A model generated the notes under the pieces. That model was not told the DNA's origin. It did not search any database and saw nothing but the letters and a program-made list of their open reading frames with translations. A DNA stretch of 64,000 nucleotides, from NCBI GenBank assembly GCA_963663765.2, contig CAXXUA010000011.1:32001-96000 (forward strand). Reading direction: 5' to 3'. How positions within the stretch are numbered: the first letter of the stretch is position 1; each line of letters starts with the position of its first letter. Of the stretch, positions 17,353-39,463 are shown piece by piece. Origin of the DNA: Candidatus Poribacteria bacterium. Its GTDB lineage: Bacteria; Poribacteria; WGA-4E; WGA-3G. A program made the position numbers and the translations under genes.

Positions 17353-19961
17353 ATGGAAAACAATGATATTGAACTCATCCAGAATATATTATCAGGTGAT
17401 GAATCTGCTTTCAGTAAGTTGGTAAAAAAATACTTCAAAAGAGCGTTCATGCATTTGTATGGCGGAAAATTGGGGATTATCACATCGCAGAGGAAATCAC
17501 GCAAGATACCTTCCTGCAGGCATACAAAAAATTGCACACCCTAAAGGACCATAATTTATTTGCTGGATGGTTGTATGTCATTGCGAATCGTCGTTGTATT
17601 GCATGGTTGCGTAAGAAAAGACTGGTGTTGCAATCGTTGGATTCAACAAGTGAAGAAATACTGGAAAAAACCGCTTATGCCTACTATGTATCAGAACAAC
17701 GTGAATTTGCATCCGCTGAACGTCGTCGTGAAATTGTTGATAGTCTTCTGGAAAAGTTGCCAGATACTCAACGCACAACGATGATCCTCCACTATCTCGG
17801 AGAAATGTCTTGTCAAGCAATCAGCAAATTATTGGGTGTTTCTTTGAACACGGTAAAAAGCAGGCTTAACCGAGCACGAAATCTATTAAGACTGGAAGAA
17901 CCCATACTTCAAGAGGCACCTAACCAACTACAGGGAGACATTCTTATGGAAAACCAAACGGCATCAAATCCTGTACCATTAAGATCATTTGAAGGTGATG
18001 TTACAACTTGGGAACTCCCTGAAGGTGCGCTTGCGCGATTGGGTCGTGGCAGTGAACCGAAAATGGCGTTCTCACCTGATGGGAACTATCTTGCTATTGG
18101 TACCGGCATAGGGCTCTGGCTATATGATGTTGCTACACTTTCACCTGTAGCATTTTGGGAGGTAGAACAAGGTGTAGTCGCATCTGTAGCCTTTTCTCCT
18201 AACGGCAAATGGATAGCAGTTAACAAATCAGGTGGAAACATTAAGATTTTGGATGTCCAAAATGGTACGTGTGTGACACAGATGAAATCAGAGACCTTCT
18301 TAGAAGGAATGGTCTTTTCCCACGATAACCGTTATCTCGCTGTGGCTTATTGGAGTACTTCTGGTGTTGAAGTTTGGCATGCGGAAACCGGTAAACCGTT
18401 TGCAAAATTGACTGCAGACATTGAAAGAGGTGGTATTTACCGTCCTATTTGTTTCTCACCTGATACTCGACTGATAGCCTCTACGTGCAGCTCAGGAACA
18501 ACTGAAGATGCGGAATCTATAGTATTGTGGAACTTAGCAAGCGGTGAACAAATTGCATATCTCTCAGCGCACACCTATTTGGTAACGTCTCTCTGCTTTT
18601 CACCGTGCGGGAAGTTCCTCGCCTCCGGTGGTGAAGATGGTACTGTGTACGTTTGGGACGTTAGGACATGGCAACAGGTGCAATGTTATACTGAATATGG
18701 TGCAGTATATCGTATTATTCCTTCTTGGACACCCGATGGCATTCTCCGCGCAGCAATTGTCCATTATGATGTGACTGGACCAACAACTATCTCAGTCCGT
18801 GACCTTGAAAATGATGAGCAGCTTTACACGGATCAAGTTTGGGGCAATACCATAGATTTTTCCTACATTGGTGATTGGGGTAACACGGTAGAATTTTCAA
18901 ACGGTTCACAACTTGCGTATGAAGGCAGACATGAATTTATCAACATTAGTACTCTTGAAAATCCTGTCAAACGTCAATTCACGCATTCGCCTATTTCATT
19001 TCCAACCTCAATGGTATTCTCAAATGACGGTAAGACGTTAGCCGTTCAGCATCATCAAGAGGGTGTTGTTTTATGGGATATTGAAAGTAAACGTTCACGT
19101 TCTGCAATTAAAGAGACATCTTCAGGTAAAAACCAGTTTGTATATAAGACTAATGATGGTAAACTCTATGCTGCAAGTATCAAAGTTGACACAGTTACGC
19201 TTTGGCAAGCTGATGGTGATGGGACCCCTTTTATTGAAGCATCTGGACGCTTATACTGGGGCGCGTTTCCTGCATTATCACCAACAGGTACACTATTCGC
19301 CTATGCTGATGAAGATGGTAACATACATGTTTGGGATGTGAATAGTGGAAAAAAACTATATGAATTAACACATCCCCTTGAACCGAGTGATAACAACGTT
19401 GACGATGACGAAGATGATGGTGACTTTGTTTATGAGTTGGAATTCAGTCATGATGGAAAATTACTCGTAAGTGTTTCAAATGCAAGAAATGTCAGAGTGT
19501 GGGACATGGAACTTGGACAAGAAATAGAATTGTTACCAGATGGTAGAGTTACGGGATTTCGGTTTTGTGAGTGTGGACAGCACCTTGTTTGCTTTAGCGA
19601 TGAAGTTATTCCATATTGGGATGTCTTTAACCGAGAATTCTGTGAGGATGATACATGCCTATATGAATCGAAACAGATTGAAATTGAATCGAGGTTGTCA
19701 CTACCCAAAGAGTATGAATATATTGAAAAACCGGTATTTACTACATGTGGACAGTACATTGCATTTATAACATCGTGGAACAAGGTTTCAAAGAGTTTTC
19801 CAATCTGTCTGTTTGAAGTGGAGAGTGGTAATCATCTTATCACCTTTAGGGGACACAGCACAGAGTTGAATGCACTTGTTCTTTCTCCAGACAACAAGCT
19901 TTTGGCCAGTGCGAGTCATGATGGTACTGTCCTGCTTTGGGATTTCGCTCCTTATCTGTGA
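17353..19961 (+). pseudogene. Frameshifted ECF sigma (clade A)-WD40 fusion; WD40 part intact
   Basis: MENNDIELIQNILSGDESAFSKLVKKY in one frame; QKSVHAFVWRKIGDYHIAEEITQDTF continues in the frame of ORF 17532-19961; extra TT at 17434-17435 relative to paralogues. Confidence 0.8.
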
Positions 19962-19991
19962 TCGTCAAAAATCATAAAGATATGACTTTTT

Positions 19992-20019
19992 TAAACCTTT
20001 TACCCCAAAACCCTCCTCT
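19992..20019 (+). promoter_or_regulatory. Putative ECF promoter, class B (TAAACC-N17-CCTCT)
   Basis: Matches 13848 and 44859. Confidence 0.6.
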
Positions 20020-20049
20020 ATACAATAAAACTGGCTCAGGAATTTGTTT

Positions 20050-22749
20050 ATGTACAACGATTTTCTTGTTTTCAGTGACCTAACAGATGAAGAATTAATT
20101 CGGCTTGTTCAAAACAGGAATGAGAAAGCTTTTGTCGAGCTGATGTCCCGTTGGACACCACGAATTAGGGGTGTCATTGTAGCGAATTCACGACAACGTC
20201 GAGACGCTGAAGAGATTCACACTGACATCTGGGTAGCTGTATGGCAAAACATCAGAGAACTCAGAAATGTAGATAGTTTCGGTGCCTGGTTGCATCGTAT
20301 TGCCTACAACGCTTGCAAGCGATACTACACTGTGGCAAGACAATCACGCAGTGAAGTTCCATATCAACATTCTGTGATTGTTGAAAACATTGACCTATAT
20401 GCTGCAGCGCGATATAGAGAAGCACAATTGATTGCTGATGTAAAAGAAGCTGTTCATAACTTACCAGAAAAGGTGCGTTCTGTAGCGGAATTGTTTTATT
20501 TAGATTCGTGGAGTATTAAAGAAATATCGGAGGAATTTGATTTTGCTATTGGTACAGTTAAAACGAAATTAAGAGAGATACGAAAACTCCTGCGTGAGGA
20601 ATTTAATGCAGAACCGATAAGAGGAGACGTTATGTCTTCAAAAAATGTTGAATCACACAGTCCAATTCAGCTTGAGACAAATAAAACCAAACCAAGCCAA
20701 ATGCCCGCACAGCTGAATGTTGTTGCGAACGATCCTACAGGGAATACCTGGGCACTACCAGAGGGCGCAATTGTGAGGTTTGGTAAAGGGAACGACGAAG
20801 ATCTTAAGCTTTCACCTGATGGAAAGTTTATTGCTGTCGGGACTCGGTTAGGGCTATGGTGGTATGATGTTTCCTCAATATCACCTATTTCGTTATGGGA
20901 ACTGGGTAAAGGCTCCGCCAGTTCCATTGATTTTTCACCAGATGGCAAATGGATCGTCATATATACAGGGAACAAAACCCTCAAGGTAATGGATATAAAA
21001 AGCGGAGAGTGCGTCATGCAGATTGATTATCATGATGCCTATAACGATCTTGTATGTTCATCAAATGGAAAATGGGTGGCGACAGCATCTATGAAAGGCA
21101 TTGTAAAGGTGTTGGATATCCAAACTGGTGAGTGCATCGCACAGATGGATCGTGGAGAACACATACGGCAATCAAACGATATTACCAACCTTCAATTTTC
21201 CCCGGATGGTAAATTGCTTGCCGCGCATGCTGGGAACCCCAAACTTTATTCAAACAACGACGAACTCTTGAATCCTGATACAGAGGGACCTCAAATTTAT
21301 ATTTGGTGCCCTCAAACGGGTAAGATGATACTCAAGTTTGCAGGACAAGAATTTACCTTCTCTTCAGACAGTCGCTTGTTAGCGGTTACATGTCCTGACG
21401 AAACCTTGAACGAAGACGAAAGCGTTGACCGTTGGGTTTCAGTATGGGATGTAACATCAAGGGAACTCCTCACACAATTTACAGGACATGACGATTGGAT
21501 AGATGCAGTCGCTTTTTCACCTTGTGGACAACTCGTTGCATCAAGTGATGGGGTCCTACGGTTATGGGATATTGCAACAAGTTCAGAAGTAAAGTTTTTT
21601 CCGGACTTTCCGGACTTTAACAATTATTTTTTCGCAGAGGATGGAGAACTGTTTGCAGTAATAATTCCTAATTCACCTAATTTGTCTATTGAAATATGGA
21701 ATGTAGAGCATCGTGAAAAGATATTTGAGATATCTGATATTGATGGTTTGGCATATTCTTTTGCCCGGGTCTATATAGAACACGTGGTTAAAACAGCATC
21801 CTACAAACAGACAGATGCCCAAATACCGGCGTTCTCAAGAATGCAAGAACCTCAGTTCCCCCCGTGGATCGTGCTGCAGATAAATTGGTTAGATGACCAG
21901 ATACTTGTGAGCAATGATGTCAAAGGAATAGTGTTGTGGGATGTCGACAAGAAATGTTACCGAGATACAGTGTCCATAGATGGCTGGCTGGATGCTATCA
22001 CCGTTCTACCCTCTGGTAAAATGCTGGTTTCTTATTTTCCTGATGAGGATAGCATGTGTGTTGCCAGCATACCTGATCAACTAATTGCTGAGTTCACTTT
22101 TCCTGATGAACTATTGGAATTGAATCGTTATCGCGCATTTGCACCGACTGGTGAGTATGTTGCGACAGGAAGTAGTGAAGGCACAGTCTATGTGTGGAAT
22201 CTCAACCAACCTGAGCACCCCATACGTCTCAAGGGACATACAGATTACGTTTACAGAGTTGCGTTTTCGTGGGATGGGAAACGACTCGTGAGTGGGGCAA
22301 GTGACGAGACTGCCCGTGTGTGGGATGTGGGATTAGGCAAAGAAATTACCAGATTGCCTATGGACGAGTCTTGCACAGTGTGGGGATTTGTGTTCTCACC
22401 CTGTGGTAGCCTTATCGCGGGATCCTTGGATAATGAGATTCGTTTGTGGTGCGCTAAGCAGTTCACAAAGGTCCTTTCAATACCGCAACCGGAGAAGAAC
22501 AGGCAGACTTATCCACTTGCATTTTCACCGTGCGGTCAGTACCTTGCAGCAGCGACTTCGTGGCCGGAGGGTTCGGAAAATATTGCAGCAATTCGGATAT
22601 GGGATGTCGCTACAGGTGAACAAATTCATGCTTTCCAGGGACATAACTCACTCGTGCAATCGCTTGCGTTTTCACCGAATGGTACAATGTTAGCGATTGG
22701 TTGTAACAATGGTACAATCCTGGTGTGGGACTTGAGACCGTATCTATAG
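20050..22749 (+). CDS. ECF sigma factor (clade B)-WD40 repeat fusion, soluble
   Basis: Sigma part nearly identical to the 13906 gene; FSPCG-type WD40 repeats; ends WDLRPYL. Confidence 0.88.
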   Translation: MYNDFLVFSDLTDEELIRLVQNRNEKAFVELMSRWTPRIRGVIVANSRQRRDAEEIHTDIWVAVWQNIRELRNVDSFGAWLHRIAYNACKRYYTVARQSRSEVPYQHSVIVENIDLYAAARYREAQLIADVKEAVHNLPEKVRSVAELFYLDSWSIKEISEEFDFAIGTVKTKLREIRKLLREEFNAEPIRGDVMSSKNVESHSPIQLETNKTKPSQMPAQLNVVANDPTGNTWALPEGAIVRFGKGNDEDLKLSPDGKFIAVGTRLGLWWYDVSSISPISLWELGKGSASSIDFSPDGKWIVIYTGNKTLKVMDIKSGECVMQIDYHDAYNDLVCSSNGKWVATASMKGIVKVLDIQTGECIAQMDRGEHIRQSNDITNLQFSPDGKLLAAHAGNPKLYSNNDELLNPDTEGPQIYIWCPQTGKMILKFAGQEFTFSSDSRLLAVTCPDETLNEDESVDRWVSVWDVTSRELLTQFTGHDDWIDAVAFSPCGQLVASSDGVLRLWDIATSSEVKFFPDFPDFNNYFFAEDGELFAVIIPNSPNLSIEIWNVEHREKIFEISDIDGLAYSFARVYIEHVVKTASYKQTDAQIPAFSRMQEPQFPPWIVLQINWLDDQILVSNDVKGIVLWDVDKKCYRDTVSIDGWLDAITVLPSGKMLVSYFPDEDSMCVASIPDQLIAEFTFPDELLELNRYRAFAPTGEYVATGSSEGTVYVWNLNQPEHPIRLKGHTDYVYRVAFSWDGKRLVSGASDETARVWDVGLGKEITRLPMDESCTVWGFVFSPCGSLIAGSLDNEIRLWCAKQFTKVLSIPQPEKNRQTYPLAFSPCGQYLAAATSWPEGSENIAAIRIWDVATGEQIHAFQGHNSLVQSLAFSPNGTMLAIGCNNGTILVWDLRPYL

Positions 22750-22768
22750 ACAACAAGGAGTAAACATA

Positions 22769-24829: not shown

Positions 24830-24847
24830 GATACATAGAGATTTTTG

Positions 24848-28680: not shown

Positions 28681-29135
28681 TAACAGAGGACGCAACAACC
28701 CAGAATAGGGTATATTGCTTCAAAATGGCATATCCAGGATAAAATTAGGATTACCCGATTAATAAATAATAAATTAATCTTCATAACCCAACCCCATGGG
28801 CGTCAATTTAAGTAAGAAGTTCTCTTATCTTGTGTAAGTGAAACCTTGGATGTTCTAATTCCTTCAGATGGCACCTTTATTGTAGTGGCGGGGTTTTTCC
28901 CCGCCCGATTGGAAGTTCGTTTACACGGACGAGGTGACCTCGCCCCTACAATGTGTACGAGGATTAGCTGCCTTAAATTGTCGATTATGGAGTAAGGTTA
29001 CCCAATCCCTACAAAAGTGTTATGTGCGATCCTATCGCGGCGTGTAAACATATTTTCGGATTCTACTATAAAACTGAATAACCCTGAAGTAATACGAACA
29101 ACCCATGACGGATTCAGGACTCTTGGAGATATTTA

Positions 29136-31274
29136 ATGGCAAATAAAAAATCAGTAATTCCTTCACCCGTAGATGTTAATAAAAGTGATGTCACAACTTG
29201 GTCACTTCCTGATGGAGCGTTTGCGCGTTTAGGGCGCGGCTGGGTGGTTGATATATCATTTTCTCCAGACAAACGTTATCTTGCAGTCGGAACCTGGATG
29301 GGACTTTGGTTGTATGACTTGGAAACGCTATCTCCAGTTACTCTCTGGGAAACGGAACGGGGTATGGTGGGACGCGTCGCCTTTTCACCTAACGGTAAAT
29401 GGATTGCTACCAGCAATTCAGACCATATTCTAAAAATATTGGACATCCTGACCGGTGAATGTATAGCAGAAACAGAAACGGATGATTATATCTCTGGACT
29501 GATGTTTTCACCTGATAGTCAATATCTTGCAGCCGCGTATGCAAGTTCTTCTACCGTGGAAATCTGGCAAACTGAAACATATGAATCTGTGAGACAGTAT
29601 TATCCATATATTGATTTTGCCAGTTTCTACAGACCTATCAGTATCTCACCTGATTCGCAATTGATAGCATCTACATTTAGCAGTGAAACATATCACAAGG
29701 CAGATGAAATAGTAATTTGGGAAGTTGGCAATGAGGAACAAATTGCAGTCCTCAACGACCATACATCTTGGGTATCGACGCTTTGCTTTTCTCCGTGTGG
29801 GAAGTTCCTCGCTTCCGGTGGTGAAGATGGTACTGTGTACGTTTGGGACGTTAGGACATGGCAACAGGTGCAATGTTTTACTGAATATGGTGCAGTATAT
29901 CGTATATTTCCTTCTTGGACACCCGATGGCATTCTACGTGCAGCAATTGTCCATTATGACGAGACTGGTCCAGCTATTATCTCGATCCGTGACCTTGTAA
30001 GTGATGAGCAACTTTACAAGGATCAATTTTGGGGCAATACCATAGATTTTTCCTGCATTGGTGATTGGGGTAACACGGTAGAATTTTCAAACGGTTCCCA
30101 AATTGCTTACGTATGCAGACACGAATTTATCAACGTATGGACAGTTGCTAATCCTAACAAACGTCAATTCACGCATTCACCTATCTCATTTCCGACCTCA
30201 ATGGTATTTTCAAATGATGGAAAGACGTTAGCCGTTCAGCATCATCATGAGGGTGTTGTTTTATGGGATATTGCGAGTAAACGTTCACGTTCAGCAGTGA
30301 ATGCGGGAACAGCAGGCAAAAATCAGTTTGTATATAATACCGATAGTGGAAAACTCTATGTTGCAAGTATTAAAGATGATAATGTTAGACTTTGGGAAGC
30401 TGATGCGAATGGTGTTCCGCTTACTGAAGGGACTGGACGAAAATACTGGAGTGCTTTTCCTGCATTATCACCAACAGGCACACTATTCACTTATGCTAAT
30501 GAAGATGGAATCCTGAAGGTGTGGGATGTACAAAGAGGGAAACAGAAAAATCAATTGACCCATCCTCTTAAGACTGATATTGACATCTATGAAGAACTTG
30601 GAGCAGATGATTTTGATGATGATTTTGATGATGAGGATGATGATTTTGATGAAGAGGATCGTGATAAGATTAAAACGTTGAAATTCAGTAATGATGGAAG
30701 AATACTTGCAAGTGAGTCAAAGTTTGGTGGCATCAAACTATGGGACATGCAGAGTAGAAAAGAGATTGGGAGTTTTTCTTCTGATATTGTTCCAGCAATC
30801 ATGGGTTTTTCTCCGTGTGGACAGTATTTAGCTTGTAATGGCGATGAAATTCTCCTGTGGGACACCATAAATTTTAAACTCCGATTTACAGGTTTAAATT
30901 ATGGACCTTACGAATATATTGAATTTTCTCCATGTGGACGGTATTTAGCATGCAGCGGTGATGAAACATTTTTGTATGACTTGAAACAGAGTGAAATTCA
31001 TGTTCGGTTATCACTTCCACAAGCGTGTGAACGTATGTATGCTGCAGCATTTTCCGCGTGTGGTAACTACTTTGCTGCTGGTGCTTGGTGGAAACAAGGT
31101 ATGGAGAAGATGCCTATCTGTTTGTGGGAAGTAGAGGGTGGTAAGCACATTGTTACCTTTTGGGGACACGCGACAGATGTGCAAGCACTTGCATTTTCCC
31201 CTGATAACAAACTATTAGCGAGTGCAAGTTATGACGGTTCAATCTTGCTTTGGGATTTGACTCCATATCTGTAA
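29136..31274 (+). CDS. WD40 repeat protein with acidic loop (no sigma domain)
   Basis: TWSLPDGAFARLG leader, FSPCG repeats, Asp-rich tract, ends WDLTPYL. Confidence 0.9.
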   Translation: MANKKSVIPSPVDVNKSDVTTWSLPDGAFARLGRGWVVDISFSPDKRYLAVGTWMGLWLYDLETLSPVTLWETERGMVGRVAFSPNGKWIATSNSDHILKILDILTGECIAETETDDYISGLMFSPDSQYLAAAYASSSTVEIWQTETYESVRQYYPYIDFASFYRPISISPDSQLIASTFSSETYHKADEIVIWEVGNEEQIAVLNDHTSWVSTLCFSPCGKFLASGGEDGTVYVWDVRTWQQVQCFTEYGAVYRIFPSWTPDGILRAAIVHYDETGPAIISIRDLVSDEQLYKDQFWGNTIDFSCIGDWGNTVEFSNGSQIAYVCRHEFINVWTVANPNKRQFTHSPISFPTSMVFSNDGKTLAVQHHHEGVVLWDIASKRSRSAVNAGTAGKNQFVYNTDSGKLYVASIKDDNVRLWEADANGVPLTEGTGRKYWSAFPALSPTGTLFTYANEDGILKVWDVQRGKQKNQLTHPLKTDIDIYEELGADDFDDDFDDEDDDFDEEDRDKIKTLKFSNDGRILASESKFGGIKLWDMQSRKEIGSFSSDIVPAIMGFSPCGQYLACNGDEILLWDTINFKLRFTGLNYGPYEYIEFSPCGRYLACSGDETFLYDLKQSEIHVRLSLPQACERMYAAAFSACGNYFAAGAWWKQGMEKMPICLWEVEGGKHIVTFWGHATDVQALAFSPDNKLLASASYDGSILLWDLTPYL

Positions 31275-31299
31275 TTTTTTTTCCAATTATGACATTTTG

Positions 31300-31327
31300 G
31301 CAACCTATCCACCGAAAAAACGCGTCA
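31300..31327 (+). promoter_or_regulatory. Putative ECF promoter, class A (GCAACC-N17-CGTCA)
   Basis: Motif intact; separated from its gene by a MITE insertion. Confidence 0.68.
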
Positions 31328-31340
31328 CCAATAATTGTAA

Positions 31341-31494
31341 TTCCAATTCAAATAAATCTTGTCTCATTAAGGAATTCTACTGTTTACTGGCAGGGGGTTA
31401 CTCTCTTCGGTAGGAGCGACCTTCCGGTCGCGACCGGAAGGTCGCTCCTACCAGATTTCCGCTGCTAATGAGACATTATCACATGAAAATGGTA
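31341..31494 (+). mobile_element. 154-bp MITE (copy 2)
   Basis: TAA on both flanks; palindrome 31409-31452 with a compensatory base-pair change. Confidence 0.85.
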
Positions 31495-31521
31495 TAAGCA
31501 TAAATTGATTACGGGAGTTCT

Positions 31522-33588
31522 ATGATAGAAAGAGATGATTTTAAACTAATCCACAGGACATTGTCAGGTGACGAGGCTGCTTTCGTCGAAGGAGACGATG
31601 TGACAACATGGTCACTTCCTGATGGCGCGATTGCGCGGCTAGAACGTGGCGGTGTACACGATTTGGCATTTTCTCCCGATGGTTACCATCTTGCTGTCAC
31701 AACAAAAATTGGGATATGGTGGTATGAAATCACAACTATGTCACCAATTGCCTTGTGGGACACACAACGTGGAATGATTGATGATATCGTTTTCTCACCT
31801 AATGGAAAATGGATAGCCACCAGCAATTCGGATATGGTCCTCAAGGTGTGGGATGTACAGCAAGGTAAATGTACCACACGGATTGAAGCAGTGGATTATT
31901 GGGATTCTTTCACCTTTTCTTCCGATAACCTTTGGCTTGCTACCATTAACAGGTCAACTCCAAATATAGAAATCAGGTCACATGAAACCGGTGAAATCGT
32001 TACAGAACTTGTTAGTCAGTTCGAAGATGGTAGTAGATTAGGGTCAATCGCATTTTCACCCGACAACCAAATAATTGCTTCCATTAAGTGTTCAGACTCA
32101 GGAAACAATATGCAGTCTATAATAGTATGGGATGTCCAAAGCAGCGAACAAATTACTTGTCTCTCGAATCATAACAACTCTATCTATAGTATCTGTTTTT
32201 CACCGTGTGGAAAGTTTCTTACATCTGGTGGCGAAGGAAGCGGAACAGTCTGTGTTTGGAATATTAAGAACTGGCAACAGGTAGAGGTATATACATGTTA
32301 CGGTAATTCTCACATGATCCCTTCCTATACACCGGAAGGGATTCTCCATGCCGCAGCTGTATCTGACAAGGATTATACCGTGACTGTATGGGAATTGGAA
32401 AACAAAGAAAAACTGTACACCGCTAATTCAGAAGGAACAATGACTTTTGAAAATGGTTCCCAGTTAGCTTATCAATATGGACATGAATACTTAGAAGTTT
32501 GGACTATGAATAACCCACAACCACGTCGAACCGTTCATACACATGTTTCATTTGTAAATACATCTGAATCAATGACATTTTCCCCAGATGGAAAAACAAT
32601 CGCGGTGGAGTATGCGTGTGGCGACGCGTTGTTTTGGAATGTTGAAAGCAAACGTTCGCGACCTGTAATCAACTTAAAATCTCGAAATAAAAAACAACAC
32701 CTTTATGTATCTCCTCACGATGAATACCATATCACTACTATTGACAGTAACGTTGTCACACTCTGGAATGTTGGTAATAGTGTGGTAACAGTTGGAACGG
32801 TTACTGGTCATGCAGACGAATGGTCTCGTCCAGCTGTTGCACCACTCGCTAACCTGCTTGCATGTGCAGATAAAGATGCCACAATAAGTGTGTGGGACAT
32901 ACAATGTGGAAAACAACTATGTAAGTTCAAACTGCATCATGGTAAACATAATCCTGATGATATTCCAGACGATCTTTCTTTCTCTTTGGAGTTCAGTCCA
33001 GATGCGAGATTCCTCACGATTGCCGAACATTACTATTATTATAGTATGCTGTGGGATGTAGAAAACAATACTGAAATAATTGCTTTTCCAAGTGATATAA
33101 TTTCGGATATATTCGGTTATTCACCTTGTGGCCAGTATCTTGCGTGCAGTATCAGCAAAAAAGGAACATTACTGTGGGATATAGAAAAACAAAAGATCTG
33201 TTTAGAATTGCAGAATATTTTTCCACTTCCAACGACATTTTCTCCATGTGGAAGGTATTTGGCATGCAGCGGTGATGAAATGTTTTTTTATGACTTGAGA
33301 CAGCATGAAATTCATGTTCGGTTATCTCTACCACAAGAGTGTGAACGTATGTATGCAACAGCATTTTCCGCGTGTGGTAACTACTTTGCTGCTGGTGCTT
33401 GGTGGAAACAAGGTATGGAGAAGATGCCTATCTGTTTGTGGGAAGTAGAGACTGGTAAGCGCATTGTTACCTTTTGGGGACACGCTACAGATGTGCAGGC
33501 ACTTGCATTTTCCCCTGATAACAAACTATTAGCGAGTGCAAGTTATGACGGTTCAATCTTGCTTTGGGATTTGACTCCATACTTATAG
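31522..33588 (+). CDS. WD40 repeat protein with a 21-aa ECF sigma N-terminal remnant
   Basis: MIERDDFKLIHRTLSGDEAAF matches MEKDDVKLIHRTLSGDDTAF of the next gene, then joins directly to EGDDVTTWSLPDG. Confidence 0.88.
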   Translation: MIERDDFKLIHRTLSGDEAAFVEGDDVTTWSLPDGAIARLERGGVHDLAFSPDGYHLAVTTKIGIWWYEITTMSPIALWDTQRGMIDDIVFSPNGKWIATSNSDMVLKVWDVQQGKCTTRIEAVDYWDSFTFSSDNLWLATINRSTPNIEIRSHETGEIVTELVSQFEDGSRLGSIAFSPDNQIIASIKCSDSGNNMQSIIVWDVQSSEQITCLSNHNNSIYSICFSPCGKFLTSGGEGSGTVCVWNIKNWQQVEVYTCYGNSHMIPSYTPEGILHAAAVSDKDYTVTVWELENKEKLYTANSEGTMTFENGSQLAYQYGHEYLEVWTMNNPQPRRTVHTHVSFVNTSESMTFSPDGKTIAVEYACGDALFWNVESKRSRPVINLKSRNKKQHLYVSPHDEYHITTIDSNVVTLWNVGNSVVTVGTVTGHADEWSRPAVAPLANLLACADKDATISVWDIQCGKQLCKFKLHHGKHNPDDIPDDLSFSLEFSPDARFLTIAEHYYYYSMLWDVENNTEIIAFPSDIISDIFGYSPCGQYLACSISKKGTLLWDIEKQKICLELQNIFPLPTTFSPCGRYLACSGDEMFFYDLRQHEIHVRLSLPQECERMYATAFSACGNYFAAGAWWKQGMEKMPICLWEVETGKRIVTFWGHATDVQALAFSPDNKLLASASYDGSILLWDLTPYL

Positions 33589-33695
33589 ACTCGGTTTTTG
33601 GAAGTTCATAATTAGAGTTTGAAAGTAATTCCTATTGGAAGAAGATGGAAAGTTTTTGAGTAATAATCATTTTTGTTCTGAATTATGACATTTTA

Positions 33696-33723
33696 GCAAC
33701 CCATCCACTGAAAAATTGTGTCA
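33696..33723 (+). promoter_or_regulatory. Putative ECF promoter, class A (GCAACC-N17-TGTCA)
   Basis: Conserved motif and spacing. Confidence 0.62.
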
Positions 33724-33761
33724 CTATAATTGTATCCCTAAAATGAACATTGAGGTGTCGG

Positions 33762-36599
33762 ATGGAAAAAGATGACGTTAAACTAATCCACAGGACATTA
33801 TCAGGTGACGATACTGCTTTCAGTGAGTTAGTCCAAAAATACCAAAAAAGTGTTCACGCCCTTGCCTGGCGTAAAATAGGTGATTTCCATATAGCAGAAG
33901 AAATCACACAAGACACTTTTCTGCAGGCGTATAAAAAACTTGCAGCATTGAAAAATCCTAATCAGTTTGCTGGATGGTTATATGTAATCGCAGATAGACG
34001 TTGTAAAGCATGGTTTCGAAAAAAGCGAATTCATACACAATCGCTTGAAGCTACCAGTAAAGAAACATTAGAAAAAAGTGCTTATGCAGACTATGACCGT
34101 GAACAGCGCGAAGACGCAGCCGTTGAACACCGCCGACAAATTGTGCAAAAGCTCATGGAAAAACTACCAGAAAGCGAACGCACGGTAATGGTATTGCATT
34201 ACCTCGGAGAAATGAGTTGTGTAGCGATTAGCAAGTTTTTAGGTGTATCTCCCAACACAGTAAAAAGTCGACTTAAACGTGGACGAGAACGTCTGAAAAG
34301 TGAAGAATCCCTAATTCGCGAAACGCTTGGAAGTGTGCCATTATCTCCAAATCTAACTGAAAACATCATGAGGCGCATTGACACAGTGAAACAACCATCT
34401 CCATCAGGAAGTAAGCCATTGGCACCATTTGCAGCATTAGGCGCATCTGCTATTTTGGTTATTTTACTGATGGGCGCGAGCAAACAACTCATCACAAATT
34501 TTCAGCAGCCATATAGTGTTGATGCAAAATCAGAAACTACAATTGAAATTGTTGACGCGCCGATTGTTCTGAATCTTCACTCAAAACCCAAATTGCAAAA
34601 CCGGGTTGGTGGTTCTAATCGCAGCATAAACAGTAACAACGGTCTAACAAAAGGAACAAACAAAGTGGAAAACAACTCAGCACAAGATGTTATGCAATGG
34701 AACTTACCAGAAAGTGCTAAAGCGCGACTCGGAAAAGGTAGGATATACGAAATCCAGTATTCACCCGATGGCAAGTTGCTTGCTGTTGCGAGCGGTATTG
34801 GTGTCTGGCTCTACGACACAACAACACGTCAAGAGGTGAATCTGCTCACAGAGCAAACGAGTGTAGTCGACTGCCTTGCGTTTAGTCCGGATGGACGCAC
34901 ATTTGCGAGTGGAAGTAAGGATGGTACCATTATCCTGTGGGATAGCAACACGGGGACGCAAAAAACGCTTAACGCGCACATAGGTTTAGTATCAGACTTG
35001 AACATTGCATATAGTCCGGATGGAAAAACAATTGCAAGTGGAATTGACGATACTATCCGATTATGGAGTGTTATCACAGGAGAACTAATATCTACGGTTA
35101 CCAGTCCTGCAATTCAGTTCAATAACTTCTTATCTTTTACACTAAATGGTGAAACAATTGTATGTGGGAATTGGGACGGAGATATCAGTCTTTGGAATTC
35201 GCTCACCGGTGAACATAAGATAACAATTCATAGACACACAGACACAGATTCCACATGGAGGTTTGCGCTCAGTCCTGATGGGAAAACACTCGCTATGGGC
35301 AGTCCGGACGAGGCACAAAATGGTACCATCTATCTTTATGATTTAAACACAGGTGAACTCAAATCTACTCTTACTGGACATTTTGATGAGAAACATAATG
35401 GCACCATCTATCTTTACGACTTAAACACAGGTAAACTCAAACCTACGCTTGCTGGACATTTTGTGGATGGACTTTTTGAGGATGTTGAATATATGGTATT
35501 CAGTCCGGATGGAAAAACATTCGCAGGTTCATCATATTATGGGATAATCGGTCTATGGGATGTGCACACTGGTGAACACAAGCTGACACTCACAGGACAT
35601 ACGTACAGTATTCGCGATATAGTGTTCAGTCCAGATGGGAAAACATTCGTGAGTGGAAGCGATGACAGTACCATTCGCTTTTGGGATGCGCGCACGGGTA
35701 ACCTCCAAAATATAATCACTGGGCATTTTGAAAATGTTGATAAAGTGGTGTTCAATTCTAATGGTCGTTTTTATATAAGTGCAAATCTGCTTGCTATTCG
35801 CGTGTGGGATGCAGACACAGGAGAACACATCAAAAAGTTAGAATTTCCGAATGGCGGAGATATTATAGGTATCACTCCAGCTGGAAAAATAGTTGCTAGA
35901 CAATATTCAAGCGATGGTAAGGACACGACCATCCTTCTATGGAATGTTCACGCTAACGAACACAAAATGCTATTCGCTGGACATAGGTGGGGTCCTATCG
36001 GCATGGAGCTTAGTATGGCACTCAGTCCTGATGGTAAAACTCTCGCTACTGAAAATAAAGACAATACCGTACGGCTATGGGATTTACACACTGGCGAACA
36101 CAAAAAAACACTGACTGGGCATACGGATTGGGTTAAGACCATAGTGTTCAGTTCTGATAATGAAACCCTCGCAAGTGGCAGTGACGACAATACGATACGA
36201 TTGTGGGATGCTATAACTGGTAAGACTAAGATGATACTTACTGGGTATACAGAGCCGGTTGAAACCGTATCGTTCAGTCCTGATGGAAAAACCCTCGCAA
36301 GTGAAGACGGCCACGGGATAATCCAACTATGGGATATAGACACTGGGAAAACCAAATTTACACTTGTTGGGCATACAGATAGGGTGTACAGTTTAGCGTT
36401 CAGTCCTGATGGAAAGACCATCGCAAGTGGGAGCATGGACAATGACATCCGCCTCTGGGATACACACACCGGTGAGCATAAGAAATCACTTACGGGTCAT
36501 ACAGATCACGTTAACAGTGTCGCCTTCAGTCCTGATGGTAAAACGTTGGTTAGTGGCAGTGACGATGGTTCTGTGCTTCTCTGGGAGGTAGATCCCTAA
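33762..36599 (+). CDS. ECF sigma factor (clade A)-transmembrane-WD40 fusion
   Basis: Sigma2 (AEEITQDTF, FAGWLYVIA), sigma4 (LGVSPNTVKSRL), TM FAALGASAILVILLMGA, FSPDG-type WD40 repeats; SD GAGGT. Confidence 0.9.
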   Translation: MEKDDVKLIHRTLSGDDTAFSELVQKYQKSVHALAWRKIGDFHIAEEITQDTFLQAYKKLAALKNPNQFAGWLYVIADRRCKAWFRKKRIHTQSLEATSKETLEKSAYADYDREQREDAAVEHRRQIVQKLMEKLPESERTVMVLHYLGEMSCVAISKFLGVSPNTVKSRLKRGRERLKSEESLIRETLGSVPLSPNLTENIMRRIDTVKQPSPSGSKPLAPFAALGASAILVILLMGASKQLITNFQQPYSVDAKSETTIEIVDAPIVLNLHSKPKLQNRVGGSNRSINSNNGLTKGTNKVENNSAQDVMQWNLPESAKARLGKGRIYEIQYSPDGKLLAVASGIGVWLYDTTTRQEVNLLTEQTSVVDCLAFSPDGRTFASGSKDGTIILWDSNTGTQKTLNAHIGLVSDLNIAYSPDGKTIASGIDDTIRLWSVITGELISTVTSPAIQFNNFLSFTLNGETIVCGNWDGDISLWNSLTGEHKITIHRHTDTDSTWRFALSPDGKTLAMGSPDEAQNGTIYLYDLNTGELKSTLTGHFDEKHNGTIYLYDLNTGKLKPTLAGHFVDGLFEDVEYMVFSPDGKTFAGSSYYGIIGLWDVHTGEHKLTLTGHTYSIRDIVFSPDGKTFVSGSDDSTIRFWDARTGNLQNIITGHFENVDKVVFNSNGRFYISANLLAIRVWDADTGEHIKKLEFPNGGDIIGITPAGKIVARQYSSDGKDTTILLWNVHANEHKMLFAGHRWGPIGMELSMALSPDGKTLATENKDNTVRLWDLHTGEHKKTLTGHTDWVKTIVFSSDNETLASGSDDNTIRLWDAITGKTKMILTGYTEPVETVSFSPDGKTLASEDGHGIIQLWDIDTGKTKFTLVGHTDRVYSLAFSPDGKTIASGSMDNDIRLWDTHTGEHKKSLTGHTDHVNSVAFSPDGKTLVSGSDDGSVLLWEVDP

Positions 36600-36672
36600 T
36601 GTCTTCAATCATAATATCTGCGTTGGTAATAGCACAATTCATTGTTCGTGTTATGTACTCTGTGACAATTCT

Positions 36673-36700
36673 GCAACCTATTTGCCGAAGAAACGCGTCA
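36673..36700 (+). promoter_or_regulatory. Putative ECF promoter, class A (GCAACC-N17-CGTCA)
   Basis: Conserved motif and spacing. Confidence 0.7.
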
Positions 36701-36745
36701 CCGATAATTATAATTGTAAGACAAAATTGATGATGGAGGTGTCGG

Positions 36746-39463
36746 ATGGAAAAAGATGACGTTAAATTAATCCACAGGACATTATCAGGTGACGATACTG
36801 CTTTCAGTGAGTTAGTCCAAAAATACCAAAAAAGTGTTCACGCCCTTGCCTGGCGTAAAATCGGTGATTTCCATATCGCTGAAGAAATCACACAAGACAC
36901 TTTTCTGCAGGCGTATAAAAAACTTGCAGCATTGAAAAATCCTAATCAGTTTGCTGGATGGTTGTATGTAATCGCAGATAGACGTTGCAAAGCATGGTTT
37001 CGAAAAAAGCGATTTCATACACAATCGCTTGAAGCTACCAGTGAAGAAACATTAGAGAAAAGTGCTTATGCAGACTATGTGTGTGAACAGCGCGAAGACG
37101 CAGCCGTTGAACACCGCCGACAAATTGTGCTAAAACTCATGGAAAAACTACCAGAGAGCGAACGCACGGTTATGGTATTGCATTACCTCGGAGAAATGAG
37201 TTGTGTAGCGATTAGCAAGTTTTTAGGTGTATCTCCCAATACAGTAAAAAGTCGACTTAAACGTGGACGAGAACGTTTACAGAATGAAGAATCCCTAATT
37301 CGCAAAACGCTTGGTAGTGTGCCATTATCTCCAAATCTAACTGAAAACATCATGCGGCGTATTGCCACAATCAAACAACCATCTCCATCAGGAAGTAAGC
37401 CATTGGCACCATTTGCAGCATTAGGAGCATCTGCTATTTTGGTTATTTTGCTTATGGGCGCGAGCAAGCAACTCATCACAAATTTTCAGCAGCCATATAG
37501 TCTTGATGCTAAATCAGAAACAACAATTGAAATTGTTGACGCGCCGATTGTTCTGAATCTTCACTCAAAACCAAAATTGCAAAACCGGGTTGATGGTGCT
37601 AATCGCAGCAAAAACAGTAACAACGGTCTAACAAAAGGAACAAACAAAGTGGAAAACAACTCAGCACAAGATGTTATGCAATGGAACCTACCTGAAGATG
37701 CTAAAGCGCGTCTCAGTAAAGGGTATATAGCCGATATAAAATATTCTCCTGATGGTAAGTTTCTGGCTGTTGCAAGTGGCATCGGTATTTGGCTTTACGA
37801 TGTGACAGTACATCAAGAGGCAAGTCTAATCACAGGAAATACGAGTTTTCAAAACGACTGCCTTGCCTTCAGTACGGATGGACGTACCTTAGCGAGTGGA
37901 AATGTTGATGGCACTATTACTCTGTATGATATAATCGCAGGGACGCAAAAAACGCTCATTGGGCATAATGGAGAATATATCACATGTATAGCACTCAGTC
38001 CGGATGGCAAAATACTTGCGAGTAGTAATCGGGAAGGCACTATCCGATTATGGAATGCTATCACTGGAGAGGCGAAGTTTACTCTCATGAATGATGTGGG
38101 TCATAATTTTTCATTCACACCAGATAGCAATGCCATTGTGGTTGTAAGTAGTGAAGACAAGATCAATCTGTGGAATTTGAACACAGGTGAGCACAAGAAA
38201 ACTTTTGCTTTGCACCCTGATTGTGCTGCTATAGGTGTAGCGTTCAGCTCAGATGGAACAACAGTCGCTGTTGGTAGTGTAAATGGCACTGTCTACCTTT
38301 ATGATATAAACACAGGCGAACTGAAGATGATCCTCTCTGAGCATAAGGATCACGTTATCCACTTAGCATTTAGCCCTGATGGAAAAGGACTTGCTACTAC
38401 GTCTTATGAAGATGAAACAATCTGTCTATGGGATGTACACACTGGTACACACAGGAGAATACTCACCGAACACCCGCGATGTGCAGGGAGCGGGGGTTTA
38501 ACGTTCAGTCCGGATGGAAAAACAATTGCGAGTGGAGGTGGCGATGGCACCATACGGTTCTGGGATGTCCACACCGGCAACACGAAAGAGATATTCACTG
38601 GTCATTCGCAGGAGGTCCGCAGTGTGGCATTCAATCCGAATGGGAACTATATCGCAAGTGGGTGCGCTAGTGGAATTATTCGTCTGTGGGATGCGGATAC
38701 ATGGCAACCCATAAGAACACTTAACGAGCCTAAAAATGGGCAGATAGAATCGGCTTATAGTATAGTGTTCAGTCCAGATGGAAAAACTCTATTTTGTGGG
38801 ACTGACGATGACATCCACCTCTGGGATGCACACACTGGCGAACACAAATTGATGTTTACTGGACATACCGGTTTTGTTAAGCATATAACACTCAGTTTGG
38901 ACGGAAATATACTTGCAAGTGAAGATGGCGATACTATCCACCTCTGGGATGCACACACTGGCGAACATAATAGAACACTCATTGGACATAATAAGTCGAT
39001 CAGTAGTATCGCGTTCAGTCCGGATGGAAAAATCCTCGCAAGCGGAAGTCTGGATGAAACTATTCGTCTCTGGGATGTTGCAACTGGGAAAAATAAAATG
39101 TTACTTACTGAGCATAATGACTGGGTGGAAGGTTTAGCGTTCAGTCCGGATGGAAAAATCCTCGCAAGTGGAGGTAATGATGCGATAATCCACCTATGGG
39201 ATACAAACACATGGAAAATCAAATATACACTTAACGGACATCCATTTTTGATGTGCTTAAGGTTCAGTCCTAATGGTAAAACTTTAGCAAGTGGCTGTGG
39301 TGACGGCACTATTCAATTATGGGATGCCCAGACCTGCGAACATAAGAAAACACTCACGGGTCATATCACTCATGTCAATAGTATCGCATTTAGTCCGGAT
39401 GGAAAAACGCTTGTTAGCGGTAGTAGTAATGGTTCTGTGCTTCTTTGGGAAATAAATCCCTAA
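36746..39463 (+). CDS. ECF sigma factor (clade A)-transmembrane-WD40 fusion
   Basis: First ~315 aa nearly identical to the 33762 gene; divergent WD40 repeats; SD GGAGGT. Confidence 0.9.
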   Translation: MEKDDVKLIHRTLSGDDTAFSELVQKYQKSVHALAWRKIGDFHIAEEITQDTFLQAYKKLAALKNPNQFAGWLYVIADRRCKAWFRKKRFHTQSLEATSEETLEKSAYADYVCEQREDAAVEHRRQIVLKLMEKLPESERTVMVLHYLGEMSCVAISKFLGVSPNTVKSRLKRGRERLQNEESLIRKTLGSVPLSPNLTENIMRRIATIKQPSPSGSKPLAPFAALGASAILVILLMGASKQLITNFQQPYSLDAKSETTIEIVDAPIVLNLHSKPKLQNRVDGANRSKNSNNGLTKGTNKVENNSAQDVMQWNLPEDAKARLSKGYIADIKYSPDGKFLAVASGIGIWLYDVTVHQEASLITGNTSFQNDCLAFSTDGRTLASGNVDGTITLYDIIAGTQKTLIGHNGEYITCIALSPDGKILASSNREGTIRLWNAITGEAKFTLMNDVGHNFSFTPDSNAIVVVSSEDKINLWNLNTGEHKKTFALHPDCAAIGVAFSSDGTTVAVGSVNGTVYLYDINTGELKMILSEHKDHVIHLAFSPDGKGLATTSYEDETICLWDVHTGTHRRILTEHPRCAGSGGLTFSPDGKTIASGGGDGTIRFWDVHTGNTKEIFTGHSQEVRSVAFNPNGNYIASGCASGIIRLWDADTWQPIRTLNEPKNGQIESAYSIVFSPDGKTLFCGTDDDIHLWDAHTGEHKLMFTGHTGFVKHITLSLDGNILASEDGDTIHLWDAHTGEHNRTLIGHNKSISSIAFSPDGKILASGSLDETIRLWDVATGKNKMLLTEHNDWVEGLAFSPDGKILASGGNDAIIHLWDTNTWKIKYTLNGHPFLMCLRFSPNGKTLASGCGDGTIQLWDAQTCEHKKTLTGHITHVNSIAFSPDGKTLVSGSSNGSVLLWEINP

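Follow-up and report, generated by a model that had tools for sequence, protein, structure and literature searches.

Genes of a WD40 array in a Candidatus Poribacteria genome are mosaics, and adjacent segments of the same gene give conflicting trees. We consider it probable (roughly 80%) that these mosaics arose by non-reciprocal ectopic gene conversion between paralogues of the array, in collinear patches of 0.35-1.0 kb. An earlier note on this DNA had attributed patchwork identity to gene conversion or unequal recombination. Recombination between paralogues is upheld as the cause by tree conflicts, AU tests and non-uniform dS, and gene conversion is its simplest form.

Organization of the array

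The source organism is a sponge symbiont. Its genome (G000) is available as a metagenome-type assembly of 6.35 Mb in 15 contigs, and the window is the whole stretch of 64,000 nucleotides that was analysed. The array consists of 13 paralogous genes, the number given in the earlier note; all have WD40 repeats and all lie head to tail on the + strand, in the region 13.9-49.4 kb (Table 1). A fourteenth ORF within the array (26873-28159) is without WD40. Array members are either fusions of an ECF sigma factor with a WD40 double propeller or the propeller alone. No hydrophobic segment was seen in g1, whose 5' module is g3-like. In g2, the 5' end is broken where an A7 run (17424-17430) shifts the frame by one base; the open frame starts at 17532, and the g2 orthologue G007a_7677 is an intact fusion of 873 aa. 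We found no high-identity tracts between g11-g14 and other genes of the window; the best inter-species homologues of these four genes are in genome G007.

Table 1. Genes of the array and segments discussed in the text (window coordinates).
Feature	Position	Strand	Description
g1	13900..16608	+	Type-A ECF sigma fused to WD40 double propeller; Sigma70_r2 and r4_2 at aa 34-183
g1 5' module tract common to g1 and g3	13902..14637	+	Partner ~20046-20781; 0/200 permutations; nucleotide identity 0.88
g2	17352..19961	+	Type-B ECF sigma fused to WD40
g2 copy of g2/g7 tract	18594..19102	+	Donor lineage; near its own orthologues here (0.78-0.91)
g3	20044..22749	+	Type-A ECF sigma fused to WD40; orthologues G006a_119, G017a_12480
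g4	22769-24829	+	Sigma-less WD40 double propeller; begins within linker
g5	24845-26836	+	Sigma-less WD40 double propeller
g7	29136..31274	+	Sigma-less WD40 double propeller; mosaic of own backbone and g2-lineage patch mid-gene
g7 converted patch	29784..30292	+	g2-lineage donor; begins at FSPCG blade motif (29787)
g7 3' end	30924..31268	+	Native, three blades, donor to g8; orthologue G013b_3222 matches at 0.80-0.87
g8	31522..33588	+	WD40 double propeller; first ~20 codons of type-B sigma gene left (internal deletion)
g8 converted 3' end	33238..33582	+	Recipient; begins at FSPCG motif (33238), ends 4-5 nt short of stop codon
g9-g10 two-gene block	33645..39470	+	Collinear with block in G013, 85.8% over 5874 nt
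g9 copy of homogenised 5' module	33725..34703	+	~37 nt leader, sigma, TM segment, linker; BLAST start 33725/36709
g9	33762..36599	+	Type-B ECF sigma, hydrophobic (TM-like) segment, linker, WD40 double propeller
g10 copy of homogenised 5' module	36709..37687	+	Paired with g9 33725..34703
g10	36746..39463	+	Type-B ECF sigma, TM segment, linker, WD40 double propeller
g11-g14	39801..49428	+	Sigma-TM-WD40, free WD40, type-A sigma-WD40, free WD40

Identity and synonymous divergence along paralogue pairs

Three pairs of tracts had been described as nearly identical. The tracts are real, ungapped and in register, but the description is too strong, given identities of 461/509 bases (90.6%) between 18594-19102 in g2 and 29784-30292 in g7, 326/345 (94.5%) between 30924-31268 in g7 and 33238-33582 in g8, and 913/954 (95.7%) between 33752-34705 in g9 and 36736-37689 in g10. 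The g2/g7 tract is internally uneven, its 40-codon windows ranging between 0.98 and 0.83. We found no further copy more than 80% identical elsewhere in the 6.35-Mb assembly.

The patchwork itself is well founded, as identity falls abruptly and does so at third codon positions as well. Third-position identity drops from ~0.9 to ~0.5 at ~34700 in g9/g10, rises from ~0.35 to 0.95 at ~30900 in g7/g8, and runs from ~0.3 through 0.88 to 0.6 along g2/g7; in g1/g3 (13900/20044), it falls from ~0.9 to 0.5 near 14650 and is back at 0.8 in the last 150 nt. We scanned third positions for change points, using 200 column permutations. In each of the four claimed pairs, the observed signal was matched by 0/200 permutations (best segments 33764-34724, 18578-19322, 30923-31262 and 13902-14637). 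For control pairs without a claimed tract (g4/g5, g5/g7, g3/g4, g2/g8 and g1/g4), 27-163 of the 200 permutations matched the signal.

Synonymous divergence, which the earlier note would have expected to be uniform had there been no exchange, is strongly non-uniform within the claimed pairs. Values of dS (NG86; those above ~1.5 are saturated and read as "large" only) are 0.132 in the 5' module and 1.075 in the WD40 part of g9/g10; 2.15, 0.27, 0.75 and 1.03 in segments A-D of g2/g7, where 0.27 is the tract; 0.128 in the 3' tract of g7/g8 versus 2.2-2.7 elsewhere; and 0.30 in the 5' module of g1/g3, 1.51 in its WD40 middle and 0.37 over the last 60 codons.

These values bear on an explanation that dispenses with recombination, in which purifying selection just acts more strongly on the 5' modules and tracts than on the rest. 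Sigma domains are indeed conserved, and dN/dS is ~0.15 in the 5' module versus ~0.25 in the WD40 part. However, purifying selection alone is refuted by the dS contrasts, which are 4- to 20-fold between adjacent segments, by the segment trees, which conflict with strong support, and by AU tests. Moreover, between orthologues the 5' module has diverged more than the WD40 part, not less. We give this explanation virtually no chance of being correct.

A homogenised module in g9 and g10

Nucleotide identity between g9 and g10 is 0.958 in the 5' module and 0.66 in the WD40 part (~45-55% in protein). The break at 34703/34704 is preceded by 64 identical bases and sits at the propeller-opening W-x-LPE...ARLGKG motif, so identity does drop where the WD40 region starts, as had been claimed. 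To their orthologues, the 5' modules are 0.825 (g9) and 0.824 (g10) identical. The WD40 parts match at 0.887 and 0.886 for g9 (G013a_15001 and G014a_3254) and at 0.901 and 0.904 for g10 (G013a_12110 and G014a_10251). Because the WD40 parts are closer to these orthologues than g9 is to g10, the duplications are old. Orthologue lengths are conserved (945/948 aa for g9, 905/905 aa for g10).

Trees of 22 sequences conflict accordingly. For the 5' module, g9 and g10 of G000 group together (100/100), as do a pair from G008 (100/99) and a trio from G007 (100/99). The WD40 tree instead sorts by paralogue type, with a g9 clade (97/93) and a g10 clade (100/99). AU tests reject grouping g9 with g10 for the WD40 part (dlnL 849, p 2.8e-9) and grouping g9 with its WD40 orthologues for the 5' module (dlnL 521, p 5e-42). 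The proposed constancy of the output domain is borne out in this form: sigma, TM segment and linker are homogenised within the genome for g9/g10, and also in the G007 and G008 paralogue sets.

It is important to consider that dS of g9 and g10 to their orthologues is 0.67-0.73 in the 5' module versus 0.25-0.32 in the WD40 part. Since the 5' module is more diverged than the WD40 part and is without a donor in the genome, at least one step is missing from this account, either a donor since lost or an import. G013 has kept both the copy number of g9 and g10 and their adjacency, while in G014 a third paralogue intervenes between the two orthologues. Within the block shared with G013, identity is 0.78-0.92 in the 5' modules and mostly 0.86-0.96 in the WD40 parts, with dips to 0.74-0.83; just beyond its borders, identity is 0.39-0.52 and similarity is gone. 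The block looks like a transferable unit whose 5' modules may have been replaced afterwards.

Donors and recipients among g2, g7 and g8

In two cases, the direction of conversion can be stated. The middle of g7 came from the g2 lineage, and g8 received its 3' end from the g7 lineage. In segment A, g7 groups with its orthologue G013b_3222 (100/99). In segment B, it groups with g2 (99/98), and forcing it with its orthologue is rejected (AU, p 2e-6). In segment D, g7 and g8 group (91/99) within a larger group that includes G013b_3222 (86/99, below the starred threshold). At 29799-29954, g7 is 0.95-0.98 identical to g2 of its own genome, whereas its identity to foreign copies does not exceed 0.88. 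Outside its 3' tract, the best matches of g8 are at most 0.74; this gene has a close relative at its 3' end only. The AU rejections for the g7 set have p-values of 6e-73, 2e-6, 2.5e-6, 0.0018 and 3.6e-5, and there was no rejection on forcing g7 with g8 in segment C (p 0.165) or g2 with its orthologue G007a_7677 in segment B (p 0.085); AU p-values are post hoc throughout, because the groupings were picked after the sliding-window results. The view that g7 is a mosaic is therefore correct with respect to its g2-derived middle, but its 3' end is its own and g8 is the recipient.

Chimeras might instead have been made by unequal crossing-over or partial segmental duplication, with copies gained and lost and without copy-number-neutral conversion. 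Species do differ in which genes the array contains and in how these are ordered, and the sigma-less genes resemble deletion products, e.g., g8 with its ~20 sigma codons and g4, which starts within the linker. Likewise, the g2 lineage has a sigma module in G007 and lacks one in G013 and G017. However, the patch in g7 is internal with native sequence on both sides, which a single crossover cannot give, and the order and lengths of g9 and g10 are as in G013. We consider this mechanism very unlikely.

The g1/g3 pair, control genes and blades

For g1 and g3 (13906 and 20050), a pattern like that of g9/g10 had been noted. The pair is mosaic with a drop in identity, but homogenisation within the genome is not clear, because orthologues of g3 are almost as close to it as g1 is in the 5' module (0.81-0.94). 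In this module, dS is 0.39 between g3 and G006a_119 and 0.30 between g1 and g3, which is barely closer. The 5' tract of g1 and g3 is an older exchange. As non-mosaic internal controls we used g4 and g5, each of which tracks one orthologue throughout (G017a_5932 and G007a_10474, respectively), with no mosaicism seen; their identity to paralogues never exceeds 0.80, a value found only at the first window of g4.

The suggestion that sensor blades are shuffled is not borne out: all tracts are collinear and in register, the g9 and g10 WD40 parts are stable lineages, and g4 and g5 are without mosaicism. Similarity between blades, whether of one gene or of different genes, reaches ~70% at most, except for a 79-nt duplication (86%) in g9, and no tandem 126-nt array is detectable.

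Evaluation of the assembly

In a metagenome-type assembly, paralogues or co-occurring strains or species might be misjoined and thereby create apparent mosaics. Short-read unitigs do end at positions 29843 and 34703, the points at which k-mers common to paralogues begin or end, and 13 of the 14 "other letters" in the tracts are the paralogue's letter. However, independent short-read contigs from three runs in two studies bridge five of the six breakpoints (19102, 29784, 30292, 30924 and 33238) with zero differences, rather than revealing the assembly chimeras that would have undermined the earlier claim. Zero-difference contigs bridge 34705 by only 32 nt, and among the listed contigs none bridging 18594 or 37689 was found. 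A strain from a third study, 1-3% diverged, bridges 19102 and 33238, and read depth is even across the unique parts in each run. Other assemblies, among them the main contig of G007 (5.9 Mb), show the same module-specific homogenisation, and identity in the tracts is 90-96% rather than 100%, which is what genuine copies that are diverging should show. An artefact is thus extremely improbable.

Divergence between species

An observation that was unexpected, and that the earlier note had not foreseen, is that the array is much closer between species than core genes are. We sampled arrays in 9 of 18 same-genus genomes, chosen for best hits. Between species, dS of array genes is 0.36-0.99 (11 of the 14 comparisons give less than 0.7), versus 2.3-2.6 for rpoB; two flank genes have pS of 0.69-0.79, and hisD and aroA have 75-79% nucleotide identity. 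This gap suggests that the array draws on a pool of cassettes moving between species, and points to exchange between species as part of the picture. Neither mobility genes nor tRNA were found in the array flanks, so a vehicle for such exchange is not visible.

The mosaics might even derive mainly from DNA imported from other Poribacteria species, with horizontally acquired WD40 cassettes, or blocks of several genes, being joined to resident 5' modules at conserved junction motifs. Besides the gap itself, this would fit the differing genomic contexts of the arrays in the 9 other sampled genomes, and the dS between G013 and G014 of 0.50-0.65 in 5' modules versus 0.06-0.10 in WD40 parts. It would also fit the sharp borders of the g9-g10 block against G013, where the WD40 parts reach 96% (100-nt windows) versus ~81% in the 5' modules and identity jumps exactly at 37681. 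However, import alone can neither yield g9 and g10 5' modules that are 95.8% mutually identical and unlike anything else sampled, nor place the g7 patch closest to g2 of the same genome. The genome must therefore still have copied its own sequence at least once, and the two processes are compatible. As the main source of the mosaics, import seems unlikely to us.

Proposed course of events

Under gene conversion between paralogues, presumably of RecA type, ~1 kb comprising leader, sigma, TM segment and linker would have been copied between g9 and g10, ending exactly at the propeller start. The central part of g7 would have received ~0.5 kb from the g2 lineage, and g8 would have received the final three blades from the g7 lineage. 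An older exchange between g1 and g3 would have involved their 5' modules and perhaps their 3' ends. Breakpoints lie on short motifs that every copy has, W-x-LPEGA-x-ARLGKG where the propeller starts and FSPCG where blades start. These motifs may act as homology anchors, or selection may spare joints at module borders only. As a result, g9 and g10 combine almost the same sigma module with sensors that differ greatly, and they would therefore be expected to address the same promoters.

Comparison with known systems

Passages of a study of ECF57 sigma factors describe WD40-like C-terminal extensions in proteins from Planctomycetes (PMC8999054). In the fusion genes of the array, too, a long WD40-rich extension follows the sigma2/sigma4 core, and type-B genes share one Cys close to where sigma2 ends and another within sigma4. 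Compared by description, they differ in their Poribacteria host, in the hydrophobic segment before the propeller in some copies and in forming an array with sigma-less copies. The eukaryote-like WD40 repeat proteins of Poribacteria (PMC3909097) come from the same phylum and belong to the same class of abundant proteins, and "sigma" has 0 occurrences in the searched passages of that paper. Our literature search on Poribacteria and gene conversion found no relevant paper.

The HNWD genes of Podospora anserina (het-d/het-e), to which the earlier note likened the array, are not a valid parallel: the likeness fails on the blades, the defining feature of HNWD, which here are neither homogenised nor shifted out of register. 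According to the HNWD literature (PMC1805685; see also PMC2873952), the systems share a constant N-terminal effector or signalling part, variable WD40 sensors, a multigene family and recombination. However, HNWD repeats stay similar to one another, both inside a gene and from gene to gene, vary in number and show positive selection on four surface residues (PMC1805685), whereas here similarity among blades does not exceed ~70%, sequence is exchanged in register and orthologues have kept their lengths. At the N-terminus, HNWD has a HET/NACHT module, and the fusions of the array have a sigma factor.

Ectopic gene conversion is well known. As in ectopic gene conversion and concerted evolution of bacterial paralogues generally (e.g., PMC6053082), paralogues within a genome are closer than orthologues over a bounded tract, borders are sharp at synonymous sites, trees of adjacent segments conflict and copy number is unchanged. 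The cases in the abstract of PMC6053082 are rare and long-lasting, while the tracts here are young (dS 0.13-0.3). What is notable here is the restriction to one module: leader, sigma, TM segment and linker are homogenised, while the sensor keeps its orthology.

Array layout and gene architecture

The array consists of ORFs g1 to g14, and 13 of these encode WD40 repeats, all on the forward strand. An ECF sigma factor is located at the N-terminus of 7 of the 13 WD40 genes. Both PF04542 (Sigma70_r2) and PF08281 (Sigma70_r4_2) score above their cut-offs in g1, g3, g9, g10, g11 and g13, while the Pfam search of the open frame of g2 recovers r4_2 only. The sigma region of g2 has an A7 run where A8 would give a fusion of about 870 aa like the ORF G007a_7677 of a same-genus genome; the frameshift may be genuine slippage or an error in sequencing the homopolymer. 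Two propeller-only genes retain traces of the sigma-TM-linker module. The start of g4 falls within the linker, and g8 begins with about 20 first codons of a type-B sigma gene, fused straight onto the propeller. The g8 N-terminus is an in-frame deletion that removed sigma factor and linker. Internal repeats of the array do not exceed ~70 % identity, with one exception, a tandem duplication in the g9 propeller (~78-79 nt, 1.9 copies, 86-88 %). Of 18 same-genus genomes, 17 have 27-73 matches each to the sigma-TM-linker module, and one has 11.

Features of the WD40 array and its surroundings (window coordinates)
Feature	Position	Strand	Description
WD40 genes (n=13)	13900-49428	+	g1-g5 and g7-g14
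g1, g3, g13		+	type A sigma-WD40; hydrophobic segment not apparent
g9, g10, g11		+	type B sigma-WD40; hydrophobic TM-like segment and ~90-aa linker ahead of propeller
g2		+	type B without hydrophobic segment; 5' end broken by one-base frameshift
g4, g5, g7, g8, g12, g14		+	propeller only
g6	26873-28159		unrelated 428-aa ORF within array; Pfam search gave nothing above threshold, only a weak match to TYW3 (E 0.0013)
g2/g7 tract pair	18594-19102; 29784-30292	+	propeller-internal
g7/g8 tract pair	30924-31268; 33238-33582	+	3' end of genes
g9/g10 tract pair	33752-34705; 36736-37689	+	5' module
g2 A7 run	17424-17430	+	site of frameshift
g2 stretch nearest to a g7 orthologue	19119-19367	+	
g8 sigma remnant	31522-31590	+	
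g9 tandem duplication	35315-35463	+	
GCAACC-N14-18-GYGTCA sites	17291-17318, 31300-31327, 33696-33723, 36673-36700, 39733-39760	+	candidate promoter-like motif
~160-nt intergenic repeat	31338-31497; 1796-1955, 28469-28683, 28802-29013, 44590-44795, 53883-54043		
Non-coding tandem repeat	9701-10678		140 bp x 7.0 copies

Patchwork identity and its boundaries

The patchwork identity among paralogues that was claimed in an earlier note is real. Ungapped identity in the tract pairs is 90.6 % (g2/g7), 94.5 % (g7/g8) and 95.7 % (g9/g10), and at the tract edges third-codon-position identity drops as sharply as overall identity (50-codon windows). A change-point scan of third positions only gave 0 of 200 permutations for g9/g10, g2/g7, g7/g8 and g1/g3, versus 27-163 of 200 in five control pairs. 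Uniform synonymous divergence, which the same note had named as speaking against its claim, is clearly absent, as dS (Nei-Gojobori) differs between segments in all four pairs. For g9/g10 it is 0.13 in the 5' module and 1.08 in the WD40 part; for g2/g7, 0.27 in the tract and 2.15, 0.75 and 1.03 in the flanks; for g7/g8, 0.13 in the last 114 codons and 2.2-2.7 in the rest; and for g1/g3, 0.30 in the 5' module, 1.51 in the WD40 middle and 0.37 at the 3' end. Gene-wide dN/dS in the WD40 part is about 0.24-0.27.

The joints coincide with module and blade borders. The g9/g10 tract sets in ~37 nt upstream of the ATG. Its other end, at 34703/34704, follows a run of 64 identical bases and falls in the initial codons of W-x-LPE...ARLGKG, the motif with which each propeller of the array begins; the g1/g3 boundary (~14637) coincides with the same motif. 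Both propeller-internal tracts start at FSPCG, a landmark of the blades (29787 and 18597; 30924 and 33238), and the g7/g8 tract ends 4-5 nt short of the stop codon. Every exchange is in register, and no blade has been relocated.

Abrupt changes of identity could also arise as assembly artefacts, and this possibility was checked with reads. The region is present in six runs of three studies; we compared contigs from four of these six runs. The best-matching run may be that of the source sample. Perfectly matching contigs, which come from three runs of two studies, span the breakpoints 19102, 29784, 30292, 30924 and 33238, and also 34705, the last with only 32 nt on one side. In the third study, contigs of a strain that is 1-3 % different span 19102 and 33238. 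Among the contigs listed, none spans 18594 or 37689. Inside the tracts, 13 of 14 variant letters are the paralogue's letter; this may reflect conversion polymorphism, but unitigs placed on the wrong paralogue explain it equally well, and we therefore draw no conclusion from it.

Homogenisation of a single module in g9 and g10

For comparison, we used the corresponding arrays of nine genomes of the same genus. In the WD40 part, the nucleotide identity of g9 to its orthologues is 0.887 in genome G013 and 0.886 in genome G014, and that of g10 is 0.901 in G013 and 0.904 in G014, versus 0.66 between g9 and g10. Because their WD40 parts are closer to separate orthologues than to each other, g9 and g10 are old paralogues. 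The 5' module has the opposite pattern, with an identity of 0.958 between g9 and g10 versus 0.82-0.83 (0.825, 0.824) to the orthologues.

Maximum-likelihood trees of 22 sequences agree with this picture. The 5'-module tree clusters by genome (the pair of the window's genome 100/100, the G008 pair 100/99, the G007 trio 100/99), and the WD40 tree clusters by paralogue type. Truncated ORFs such as G002a_11558, G005a_16572, G012a_9493, G007b_1089, G007b_3754, G006a_3716, G006a_6483, G008a_14528 and G013a_8176 are left out of this set. The AU test rejects a g9+g10 grouping in the WD40 part (p 2.8e-9) and a grouping of g9 with its WD40 orthologues in the 5' module (p 5e-42). In g9/g10 and their relatives, evolution is concerted in one module only. 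The g1/g3 paralogues are not clearly closer to each other than to orthologues.

The adjacency and lengths of g9 and g10 are preserved in G013, and in G014 too except for one paralogue in between; orthologue lengths are 945 vs 948 aa for g9 and 905 vs 905 aa for g10. A donor elsewhere in the genome was sought by a BLASTN search of all 15 contigs with the array as query. This search gave 44 genic matches outside the window, most at 65-73 % identity and none above 80.4 %.

Mosaic structure of g7 and g8

We analyzed g7 and g8 using sliding best hits and trees of four successive segments (A-D) of the g7 alignment; trees and AU tests were based on 11/22 aligned group-I sequences, with the g1/g3/g4 subgroup and its relatives omitted. 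The backbone of g7 is common with its orthologue G013b_3222 (segment A, 100/99). Its middle patch, which is internal to the gene, clusters with g2 of the same genome (99/98) and with g2 orthologues. At the 3' end, g7 and g8 group together (91/99) inside a weaker cluster with the g7 orthologue (86/99). Outside its tract, g8 has relatives at <=0.74 only. As negative controls, g4 and g5 each track one orthologue over the full length.

AU tests on these segments reject the alternatives in 5 of 7 cases, where the p-values are only descriptive, since the groupings were picked after the sliding windows had been viewed. The two alternatives that were not rejected are a forced g7+g8 grouping in segment C (p 0.165) and a forced grouping of g2 with G007a_7677 in segment B (p 0.085). 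Over all AU tests, 2 of 9 are non-significant, and adjacent segments of one gene differ significantly in their tree. The earlier inference of gene conversion is well supported, whereas its account of donors and recipients has to be revised: the placement of the g7 patch with the g2 lineage and the 3' cluster of g7 and g8 indicate the g2 lineage as donor to g7, and the g7 lineage as donor to g8. Separately, part of g2 is nearest to the g7 orthologue G013b_3222 (0.79-0.87), a similarity that suggests an older exchange in the opposite direction, from the g7 lineage to g2.

Signal of exchange between species

Synonymous sites of core and flank genes are saturated between the window's genome and the compared species. 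The rpoB genes are 75-77 % identical with a dS of 2.3-2.6, hisD and aroA are 75-79 % identical, and two flank genes have a pS of 0.69-0.79. As rpoB was not found in G013 (81 % complete), this genome was calibrated by the two flank genes and hisD. For array genes and their best homologues in the same species, dS is 0.36-0.99, and 11 of 14 comparisons give values below 0.7. Over 5874 nt, the g9-g10 block runs collinear with G013 at 85.8 % identity, with 39-52 % just outside; within the block, the WD40 parts are mostly at 0.86-0.96 (to 96 % per 100-nt window) and the 5' modules at ~81 %. When the window flanks were compared with the 18 retrieved loci by TBLASTX, no more than 9 fragments matched, with a protein identity of 30-57 %; the other genomes therefore do not share the context of the array.

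Array genes thus seem to be transferred between species that have saturated synonymous sites in their core genes. This inference is based on five core and flank genes and on nine genomes that were picked for their hits. On the simplest reading of these sequence comparisons, array genes would have crossed species long after the split, one at a time or a few together as a block, and their 5' modules would then have been replaced or homogenised in each genome.

In the close relatives G013 and G014, the g9/g10 orthologues have a dS of 0.06-0.10 in the WD40 part and 0.50-0.65 in the sigma-TM-linker module, so module replacement is fast in that clade too.

Flanking genes, repeats and a promoter-like motif

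The window flanks contain ordinary metabolic genes. A search for tRNA and tmRNA genes found none, and no integrase or transposase is present among 16 flanking ORFs. A candidate ECF-type promoter-like motif, GCAACC-N14-18-GYGTCA, lies upstream of all type-B sigma starts (g2, the g8 remnant, g9, g10 and g11). The window contains 5 matches where 0.06 would be expected, a count that is partly circular because the motif was derived from 3 of these 5 sites; genome-wide there are 11 matches.

An intergenic repeat of ~160 nt with a 44-nt palindrome is present in hundreds of copies (94-98 % identity) on all large contigs, and one copy separates the promoter-like motif from the start of g8. From its sequence, it looks like a REP or MITE-type element. 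The 140-bp tandem repeat (98 % identity), which has GTAG-type hairpins, is located between an aminotransferase gene and a PhyH-like gene.

Implications

Few 'eukaryote-like' families of sponge symbionts are as expanded as the WD40 proteins. The locus shows how such a family evolves, with signalling (sigma) and sensor (propeller) modules that have separate histories, and it offers a concrete and testable view of how modular signal transduction evolves in a symbiont that is not in culture. Neighbouring genes keep similar sigma modules, which predicts one regulon fed by different sensors. In practice, these genes will yield misleading orthology calls, gene trees and short-read assemblies unless the modules are handled separately.

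A broader hypothesis, which we consider rather unlikely, is that Poribacteria of a single genus have in common a pool of horizontally exchanged WD40 'sensor cassettes', which are joined behind ECF-sigma output modules that gene conversion keeps uniform in each genome. If true, such a system would be the bacterial equivalent of a receptor repertoire, with one standard output wiring per genome and many swappable sensors, and the sensors would turn over on a far shorter timescale than the core genome. Within sponges, it may help to keep pace with ligands of host, phage or neighbouring cells as these change.

Comparison with known systems

The earlier note had likened the array to the shuffled WD40 blades of fungal HNWD receptors. 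This analogy fails. According to PMC1805685, the HNWD family is defined by repeats that are homogenised and vary in number, and by surface residues under positive selection. In the array, there are no homogenised repeats: TRF found no array with a ~126-nt period in 13800-49500, and off-diagonal self matches are at 66-71 % except for the duplication in g9. Judged by length in two gene pairs (g9 and g10), repeat number does not vary between orthologues. Finally, HNWD proteins combine a HET or other death-effector domain with a NACHT NTPase, whereas the N-terminal modules here are Sigma70_r2 and Sigma70_r4_2.

The abundance of WD40 proteins in Poribacteria is already known (PMC3909097). ECF sigma factors with WD40 extensions form group ECF57, for which PMC8999054 proposes that two conserved cysteines connect sigma2 and sigma4. 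By domain content, the sigma-bearing array genes resemble ECF57 in having a sigma2/sigma4 core with C-terminal WD40-like repeats. In type-B genes, 'RRC' follows sigma2 and sigma4 contains 'MSC', and the second cysteine is absent in type A, as read from the array genes alone.

Ectopic gene conversion between bacterial paralogues is an established process, and the array resembles it in that the 5' modules of the g9/g10 paralogues are closer to each other than to orthologues, the synonymous borders are sharp and the segment trees conflict. A literature search found nothing on gene conversion in these sigma-WD40 genes; a search for concerted evolution of sigma factor paralogs by gene conversion had no match, and papers retrieved for Poribacteria and gene conversion were off topic, judged by title. 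What the array adds to these known systems is module-specific homogenisation and a signal of exchange between species.
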